DNA of 64,000 nucleotides from Candidatus Micrarchaeia archaeon (GTDB lineage Archaea > Micrarchaeota > Micrarchaeia > CAILAH01). Every line of letters begins with the position of its first letter. Position 1 is the first letter of the stretch. Made by a program: the position numbers and the translations under genes. Under the pieces are notes generated by a model. It was not told the DNA's origin and searched no databases. It saw only the letters and a list, made by a program, of their open reading frames with translations. Where the stretch lies: assembly GCA_038874595.1 (NCBI GenBank), contig JAVZCB010000001.1, positions 161,052 through 225,051 of the forward strand, written 5' to 3'. Shown here piece by piece: positions 41,112 to 41,414 of this stretch.

Positions 41112-41414
41112 GGGCCAGTAGCTTAGCCTGGTGGAGCGCCCGACTGATATCAGTCACGGGTGTCCGGTTGAGCCCATTCCTCTGGAATGGAAATCGGGAG
41201 GCCGGGAGTTCAAAAAGAAGGGTGGAAGGGAGAACCCTTCCCCCCTTCTCAACCCACCTATCCCCTTGAGAGTTGGTGTGGTGTGTGAAAGAGGTGGAAG
41301 GGAGAACCCTTCCCCCCTTCTCAACCCACCTATCCCCTTGAGAGTTGGTGTGGTGTGTGAAAGAGGTGGAAGGGGGTTCCTTCCCCACTTTAGTTGAAAA
41401 TCTCCCCTGGCCCA
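41112..41414 (+). tRNA. tRNA-Ile(GAU) with two introns (37/38: 41150-41192; T-loop 59/60: 41215-41400); CCA not encoded
   Basis: Exons join to GGGCCAGTAGCTTAGCCTGGTGGAGCGCCCGACTGATA|ATCGGGAGGCCGGGAGTTCAAA|TCTCCCCTGGCCCA, a complete cloverleaf (acceptor GGGCCAG/CTGGCCC, anticodon stem CCCGA/TCGGG, T stem GGGAG/CTCCC). Confidence 0.85.
41221..41374 (+). repeat. 72-bp tandem repeat (2 exact copies plus 10-bp partial) inside the tRNA T-loop intron
   Basis: GGTGGAAGGG begins at 41221, 41293 and 41365; the first two units are identical. Confidence 0.92.

Follow-up and report, generated by a model that had tools for sequence, protein, structure and literature searches.

A tandemly duplicated hairpin module in the T-loop intron of a Micrarchaeota tRNA-Ile(GAU) gene

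The closest described counterpart of the intron reported here is found in the same phylum, in ARMAN-2 (Candidatus Micrarchaeum acidiphilum; Fujishima 2011, PMC3239211; 4FZ2), with which it has the intron position, 59/60, and the type of splicing endonuclease in common. The epsilon2 EndA of ARMAN-2 cuts a 13-nt hBH intron at 59/60 in vitro (PMC3239211), and the junction is built there as it is here, from the T-stem, a 3-nt bulge and a 4-bp helix that makes use of the T-loop. The published ARMAN-2 intron has no internal structure, whereas the one described below is 186 nt long, modular and tandemly duplicated and, unlike the ARMAN-2 example, has a content that recurs in the introns of other tRNAs.

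Two further systems invite comparison. Families of transposed introns have been described in Thermoproteales (Fujishima 2010, in PMC4090602), which belong to a different phylum and have a different type of endonuclease. The present case also differs from these families, as PMC4090602 summarises them, in that only a 5' module is common to the introns while their 3' ends are host-specific, in that this module amplifies in tandem, and in that internal units appear to move between introns. As in the Thermoproteales families, similar intron sequence occurs across isotypes and positions, here and, in relatives, in Thr, Ser, Met, Glu, Arg and Leu(CAG) genes; whole introns common from end to end were not found, the exception being the last ~105 nt of an Ile pair. 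Eukaryotic introner elements (PMC11282704) resemble the module in that the copies of a short, non-coding repeat serve as introns, or as intron starts, in many genes and always in the spliceable orientation. This is an analogy and not membership, since splicing here is protein-only, at BHB motifs in tRNA genes, and the strict module, unlike introners, shows no link to a transposase, no terminal inverted repeats and no target duplications. Tandem hairpin modules in tRNA introns of Micrarchaeota were not found in the literature searched, an absence that is not proof of novelty.

We put at roughly 0.65 the probability that the locus is an EndA/RtcB-spliced intron at 59/60 that has acquired, by conversion, a lineage-specific, intron-dwelling two-hairpin module of ~72 nt, which was subsequently doubled and is carried as a selfish passenger.

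The tRNA-Ile(GAU) gene and the splicing of its T-loop intron

The window, by which we mean the whole 64,000-nt stretch of Candidatus Micrarchaeia archaeon DNA that was analysed, lies on a 225-kb contig of an assembly of 918 kb in 7 contigs (43-45% GC, 93.5% complete). Sequence reading and in-silico splicing reveal a tRNA-Ile(GAU) gene with two introns at 41112-41414 (Table 1). When the segments 41112-41149, 41193-41214 and 41401-41414 are joined, ARAGORN returns a 74-nt tRNA-Ile(GAU) with a clean cloverleaf, and both introns have to be taken out for a tRNA to result. This agrees with the earlier note on this DNA, made from the letters alone, which had proposed a T-loop intron of 186 nt at 59/60 in an essential tRNA. 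The span given there, 41204-41406, takes in both T-stem strands, the intron proper being 41215-41400. The 38 nt of exon 1 are 100% identical in the orthologues of four other family genomes, the anticodon loop reads CTGATA before intron 1, and the 3' exon consists of T, CTCCC, CTGGCCC and A. Neither default ARAGORN nor Rfam at gathering score detects a tRNA anywhere in the window; standard finders miss such genes, so that the tRNA complements of these genomes are under-called. An intact tRNA-Ile(GAU) elsewhere, which the earlier note had named, together with a locus that is never spliced, as one case that would speak against its reading, did not turn up: blastn and a loose GAU-anticodon scan found no second tRNA-like GAU anticodon arm in the 918-kb assembly. 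In intron 1 the 3' hairpin CCATTCC/GGAATGG is conserved in all congeners and the CAGTC of the intron pairs with an exon GACTG; no strict BHB could be fitted by hand to this 37/38 intron.

Table 1. Features of the tRNA-Ile(GAU) locus (positions in the window)
Feature	Position	Strand	Description
Exon 1	41112..41149	+	Acceptor 5' strand, D-arm, anticodon stem 5' strand, loop to A37
Intron 1	41150..41192	+	43 nt, canonical position 37/38
Exon 2	41193..41214	+	nt 38-59: anticodon stem 3' strand, variable loop, T-stem 5' strand, T-loop TTCAAA
Intron 2	41215..41400	+	186 nt, T-loop position 59/60, relaxed hBH motif; starts AAGAAGGG, ends GUUGAAAA
Hairpin 1	41216..41249	+	Conserved family hairpin, starts 1 nt after 5' splice site
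72-nt unit, copy 1	41221..41292	+	Inner part of hairpin 1, motif, G/U-rich second hairpin arm
Motif CAACCCACCTATCCCC, copy 1	41250..41265	+	First 14 nt = CAACCCACCTAYCC
72-nt unit, copy 2	41293..41364	+	Identical to copy 1
Conserved motif, copy 2	41322..41337	+	
Variant terminal (third) hairpin	41360..41391	+	Homologous to terminal hairpin of tRNA-Ile(UAU) T-loop intron
GGTGGAAGGG, third occurrence	41365..41374	+	
TGAA strand of central helix and AAT bulge with 3' splice site	41395..41401	+	Pairs with T-loop TTCA, 41209-41212
Exon 3	41401..41414	+	U60, T-stem 3' strand, acceptor 3' strand, discriminator A

The minimum free energy (MFE) fold of the precursor forms the acceptor stem and the T-stem, with GGGAG/CUCCC at the junction, and pairs the UUCA(A) of the T-loop with (U)UGAA at the 3' end of intron 2. 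Between this UUCA/UGAA helix and the T-stem, AAU (41399-41401) is left as a 3-nt bulge with the 3' splice site inside it. Cleavage in a BHB motif usually falls after the second bulge nucleotide, and applying this rule to the AAU bulge places intron 2 at 59/60. The 5' site lies inside a 3x2 internal loop, which is followed by a 14-bp helix joining the two ends of the intron. The junction does not have the strict hBHBh' form (3-nt bulge, 4-bp helix, 3-nt bulge) and is of the relaxed hBH type, so that the relaxed motif proposed earlier (TTCA/TGAA helix, AAT bulge, GGGAG/CTCCC) is recovered by the MFE folds. The pre-tRNA is more stable than shuffled sequences (z = -6.4). Folded alone, intron 2 reaches -80 kcal/mol as a linear and -74 kcal/mol as a circular molecule, and it has alternative folds, a string of local hairpins at -74 kcal/mol as against a long rod at -80 kcal/mol, held together by the 5' arm and the last 3' arm. 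The RNA would be cut out by EndA, with either the two intron ends or the local hairpins providing the helix next to the splice sites.

A profile search found matches to PF01974 (EndA) on contig C7 of the genome. The only EndA gene, of the epsilon2 type, occupies C7:3-733 at the very start of the contig, lacks ~150 N-terminal residues and is read in two overlapping frames (3-410 and 356-733), which reflects either an assembly error or a real frameshift. The best solved relative of both fragments is 4FZ2, the epsilon2 EndA of ARMAN-2 (E=2e-45 and 3e-40), of which they match residues 151-277 and 264-387. The genome thus contains both a relaxed hBH motif and an EndA of the broad-specificity epsilon2 type, and the suggestion that a broad-specificity endonuclease like that of ARMAN would be at work is sustained by this gene.

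An insert at this position is nothing exceptional. A filtered heuristic scan, which will have missed some tRNAs, recovered 38 tRNA-like genes in the genome, 20 of which carry an insert at 59/60, and these inserts measure 26-98 nt except for three of 186 (Ile-GAU), 230 and 236 nt. The position is therefore ordinary in this organism while length and content are unusual; as introns go, that in the T-loop of Ile(GAU) is of a common kind, but what fills it is unusual, mobile and expanding.

Several other T-loop interruptions were noticed along the way. A probable tRNA-His gene (C2:11803-12202) is interrupted in its T-loop by a 230-nt intron in which a 48-nt hairpin unit, GGGCCCCAGCGGGCCCC and then CCCCTTGCAACCA, is repeated in tandem ~3.5 times; the unit resembles the T-loop intron of tRNA-Ile(GAU) in the congener G002. 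Behind each of four tRNA genes (C3:54792-55243, C2:556-808, C4:78948-79181 and C6:28458-28798) the gene's own 3' exon is repeated once or twice more, at regular spacings of 91, 63, 111 and 55-167 nt, respectively, so that any one T-loop intron could be closed by one of several 3' exons. The tRNA-Ile(GAU) of another genome, G003 (L005, G003:C22, from base 1501), has no 37/38 intron and is interrupted after TTCAAA; no matching 3' exon follows within 560 nt, a stretch that contains a tRNA on the opposite strand, and the gene may have a very long intron or be split.

Repeat anatomy of the intron

TRF reports a 72-nt unit at 2.1 copies with 100% matches over 41221-41374, and a script check confirms that 41221-41302 is identical to 41293-41374. 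The exact 72-nt tandem duplication spans 41221-41364 and is bounded by the 10-nt direct repeat GGTGGAAGGG, which occurs at 41221, 41293 and 41365. Each unit comprises a purine/pyrimidine hairpin, the motif CAACCCACCTATCCCC and a G/U-rich arm able to pair back onto the motif. The arms of hairpin 1 (41216-41230 and 41235-41249) enclose an AGAA loop and form 15 bp with one U.C mismatch at -23.8 kcal/mol; the second copy of this hairpin is at 41288-41321. Both the arrangement first read from the letters, three hairpins in two exact 72-bp units plus a variant third, and the description of the first hairpin as 15 bp with one mismatch are upheld, the former by TRF and the script check and the latter by the fold and its energy.

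Mechanically called open reading frames of 88 aa (plus strand) and 133 aa (minus strand) run across the locus and overlap tRNA exons. The earlier note had seen neither C/D boxes nor a credible ORF; there is indeed no C/D signal, and the frames that do cross the locus are not credible, matching no Pfam family. A coding repeat (72-nt period, one open frame) was considered and rejected, given that other arrays have periods of 83, 85, 127, 48 and 50 nt, that module copies differ by indels of 1-2 nt, and that no Pfam family scores above the cut-off.

Searches for a function of the RNA gave little. A permissive Rfam scan of the intron returned chance hairpin matches only, far below the cut-off, and the intron shows neither the features of a C/D-box guide RNA nor an antisense target above shuffles. 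The conserved motif has no antisense partner in the genome better than those of shuffled controls. An intrastrand triplex, in which the pyrimidine tract would mirror the purine arm, was also tried; its best register reaches 9/14, and 14% of shuffles do as well. Among metagenome contigs, the 21-mer across the repeat junction has no match, and a scan for the motif gave one chance match in unrelated pyrimidine-rich DNA.

The module in other tRNA introns of the genome and its relatives

When the intron was compared with its own genome by blastn, two other loci were found, both of them tRNA genes. The first is tRNA-Ile(UAU) (C1:42071-42421), with a 236-nt T-loop intron at the same position, 59/60. 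Reduced to one copy of the unit, the intron of Ile(GAU) can be aligned over ~107 nt with the 3'-terminal ~105 nt of this intron, the 5' 127 nt of which have no counterpart in Ile(GAU). The second is tRNA-Leu(UAG) (C3:148867-149234), where the 72-nt unit of the Ile(GAU) type is present at 2.6 copies inside a 37/38 intron. The units of Ile(GAU) and Leu(UAG) are identical at 65/72 positions and 100% identical within each locus.

A regular expression for the core (GAAGGG ... CCCTTC[TG]CAA) has nine matches genome-wide, all in the sense orientation and all in six tRNA genes (Ile-GAU, Ile-UAU, Leu-UAG, Pro-CGG, Trp-CCA and Gln-CUG); outside tRNA introns it finds no strict copy on either strand of the whole genome. 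In five of these six genes the first module copy starts 1-2 nt after the 5' splice site, the exception being Ile(UAU), where it lies ~127 nt inside the intron. A diverged relative is found in the tRNA-Val(CAC) intron, a 72-nt two-hairpin unit with copy starts at four positions (z = 4.8 against shuffles when aligned with the Ile unit), and the module is also arrayed in tandem in Gln (50 nt x2) and Pro (x2). At least seven tRNA genes of this genome have the module in an intron, at 59/60 in Ile and at 37/38 in the Leu, Pro, Trp, Gln and Val introns. In tRNA-Trp it precedes an apparently older conserved intron core, and in general only the 5' module is common to the introns, with host-specific 3' ends, apart from the ending common to Ile(GAU) and Ile(UAU).

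Beyond the genome, a BLAST of the locus against 40 relatives matched the module in the same family only, in introns of Thr(CGU), Val(CAC), Leu(UAG), Trp(CCA) and Ile(UAU). A covariance model of hairpin and motif, R1, has matches in 9/9 family genomes, which as kin are not independent samples. Sixteen further R1 matches were inspected, and 11 of them start a tRNA intron in the sense orientation (Thr-UGU x2, Leu-UAG, Leu-CAG, Ser-UGA, Met-CAU x2, Glu-UUC, Val-CAC, Arg-UCG and one T-loop intron); three, all within a tandem repeat of G005, stand in antisense beside 3' fragments of tRNAs, and two lie elsewhere. The module starts about a dozen tRNA introns in five related genera, and the Val(CAC) orthologue of G002 carries an Ile-type module at the same place. 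Across GTDB, five Micrarchaeota genomes contain the exact motif, and the only other matches are four in bacteria that are due to chance.

The hairpin is maintained by compensatory change. Over 12 copies, 89% of cells are paired, four pairs show double changes and 0/500 shuffles reach the covariation score, a result to be read with the caution that slid controls also score fairly high, owing to the purine/pyrimidine make-up. In nine aligned module copies from six genomes, CAACCCACCTAYCC is invariant or nearly so. A consensus fold of the whole module gave no support for hairpin 2, whose variable 3' arm aligns poorly.

The earlier note had thought of a MITE/REP-like selfish element that is expanding and had proposed a search for the module in other tRNAs and in intergenic DNA. 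The module was found in other tRNA introns, and no strict intergenic copy exists in the genome. A selfish, expanding element fits a tRNA-intron family that is spread over five genera and forms tandem arrays, but the MITE/REP anatomy is rejected, since all nine strict copies in the genome lie within tRNA introns and in the sense orientation, with no intergenic one among them, and since the intron is not flanked by a duplication.

A few observations concern neighbouring elements and odd copies. A related hairpin element, CACTGATGG, forms two tandem 77-nt copies at C3:54600-54760, apparently in intergenic DNA; it is also the 5' part of the tRNA-Ile(UAU) T-loop intron, and another copy stands behind a coding region in the congener G001 (L057). 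In G006 (C7:27000-27700, minus strand; L020) a ~100-nt insert directly behind tRNA-Ile(UAU) contains the CACTGATGG element in antisense. The 21-nt direct repeat on its two sides takes in the final 10 nt of the tRNA and looks like a target or att duplication. On two contigs of G005 (C8 and C23; L063 and L064), each of the ~137-nt tandem repeats fuses the 3' part of a tRNA, T-arm plus acceptor, with the module in antisense. Finally, at G001:C22:7000-7950 (L053, minus strand) the motif region recurs as an 18-nt tandem repeat, GTTAGACCCAACTCCCCC, behind a Val-type module copy, in a context not recognisable as a tRNA.

Origin of the intron content and alternative explanations

Orthologous genes allow the history of the intron to be read in part. 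The tRNA-Ile(GAU) of the congener G001 has a 59/60 intron of 99 nt with an unrelated interior, and the congener G002 has two copies of the gene, with 59 nt and 31 nt at 59/60, again with unrelated interiors. In G007 a 59/60 intron is present and cut by the contig end; G006 has no T-loop intron and is interrupted at 37/38 only, and G005 has no intron at all. Since the introns that the congeners carry at 59/60 are unrelated to this one in content, the site has been kept in the genus and the content found here is recent: the T-loop site would be old in the genus, and its content would have been replaced after speciation.

The new content was probably derived, to judge from sequence comparison, from the paralogous tRNA-Ile(UAU) intron by gene conversion. 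The paralogues do not differ in T-arm or acceptor 3' strand, and in G002 a 31-nt T-loop intron recurs almost unchanged in Ile(GAU) and Ile(UAU). From a common T-arm and acceptor strand together with common introns we infer repeated gene conversion between the 3' halves of the paralogues, which would have been the source of the module. The Ile(UAU) intron of G001 starts with the module and is cut by the contig end, so that the ancestral state is seen incompletely. Two GGTGGAAGGG repeats at a distance of 72 nt would then have allowed slippage or unequal recombination to double the unit, an exact duplication bounded by such a 10-nt repeat being the expected product of either process. The Leu(UAG) orthologue in G001 has one module and is without the Ile-type spacer seen in the Leu units of the present genome, which suggests that the unit moved from the Ile type into the Leu intron; ectopic conversion through the common hairpin and motif could have carried it into this anticodon-loop intron. 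Under this scenario the module would have no host function beyond being spliceable and would be a selfish passenger of tRNA introns.

Two properties sit uneasily with a passenger that is simply tolerated. The motif is invariant while the stems covary and the partner arm of hairpin 2 is free to change, which a purely neutral passenger does not predict and which suggests that the sequence itself matters, be it for mobility, for protein binding or for splicing. Nor is placement at the 5' splice site in a uniform sense orientation explained by random DNA insertion followed by tolerance. It is possible, and we suggest it tentatively, that the module is an archaeal counterpart of introners, whose own 5' end defines the 5' splice site of the BHB and which colonises or creates tRNA introns wherever a bulge-helix is able to form and multiplies head to tail; such a module might spread through the splicing machinery, with the excised RNA re-inserted and no transposase involved. 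We regard as rather unlikely that the hairpin is instead a cis-acting splicing aid, supplying after the 5' bulge the helix (h') favoured by epsilon2 EndA and kept in old introns by selection and ectopic gene conversion, without transposition or selfishness. A start 1-2 nt after the 5' splice site at both 37/38 and 59/60, the compensatory changes in the stem, the helix formed next to the splice sites by the 5' arm of the intron in the MFE fold, and the module in front of the apparently older core in tRNA-Trp would all be in keeping with such an aid. Most 59/60 introns of the genome (26-98 nt) do without it, however, as do the Ile(GAU) T-loop introns of the congeners, so that the module is not needed for splicing at 59/60 here; the ARMAN-2 enzyme cuts its 13-nt 59/60 intron with no such hairpin (PMC3239211), and a structural role leaves both the invariant single-stranded motif and the tandem amplification unexplained. 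That the excised intron would be a functional RNA seems more doubtful still. It might form a rod circularised by RtcB, in which the CAACCCACCUAUCC motif could bind protein or RNA and tandem copies could raise the dose. Archaeal tRNA introns do circularise, the motif is invariant across genera while its flanks change, and the stability of the pre-tRNA relative to shuffles and the folding energies of the linear and circular intron (-80 and -74 kcal/mol) are compatible with a structured product; against it, there is no Rfam family and no C/D or H/ACA signal, the best antisense partner (-26 to -27 kcal/mol) does no better than those of shuffled motifs (-27 to -33.5), orthologous introns of congeners are without the module, and copy number and host tRNA vary freely between relatives.

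We think it highly improbable that the second 72-nt copy was produced by the assembly and that the intron really measures 114 nt, even though the two copies are 100% identical over 154 nt and assemblies of relatives break inside the module (G001 contig C67 ends in it). Assemblers usually collapse repeats and do not expand them, the locus lies in a 225-kb contig of a 7-contig assembly, and the genome contains independent arrays with locus-specific variants, namely the 2.6 copies in Leu, the four copy starts in Val and the 48-nt unit repeated 3.5 times in another T-loop intron. Almost no credence is given to the remaining proposal, that the intron shields the tRNA gene from elements that integrate at tRNA 3' halves. 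It is an old general hypothesis for disrupted tRNA genes and would suit the very high frequency of T-loop inserts in this genome, but there is no integrase or att evidence at the Ile(GAU) locus, and shielding would account neither for the sharing of the module nor for its amplification. The earlier note had suggested that the intron could block integration; against this, a small element in G006 immediately follows an Ile(UAU) gene whose T-loop is interrupted by an intron, and it is flanked by 21 nt repeated from the 3' end of that tRNA.

As to how tRNA introns arrive in archaea, transposition has been inferred for Thermoproteales only, and in Asgard archaea no general route of arrival was found (2026 preprint, 10.64898/2026.10.13.758758). 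The loci assembled here make three steps readable from sequence, namely an intron site that persists although paralogues exchange what it contains, a unit copied into the intron of an unrelated tRNA, and a unit doubled between short direct repeats. The strict position next to the 5' splice site and the single orientation suggest some mechanism or constraint, which would be open to testing with a known and already crystallised type of enzyme. If the module is indeed a counterpart of introners, this family of Micrarchaeota would be a live system for the gain of tRNA introns in archaea.
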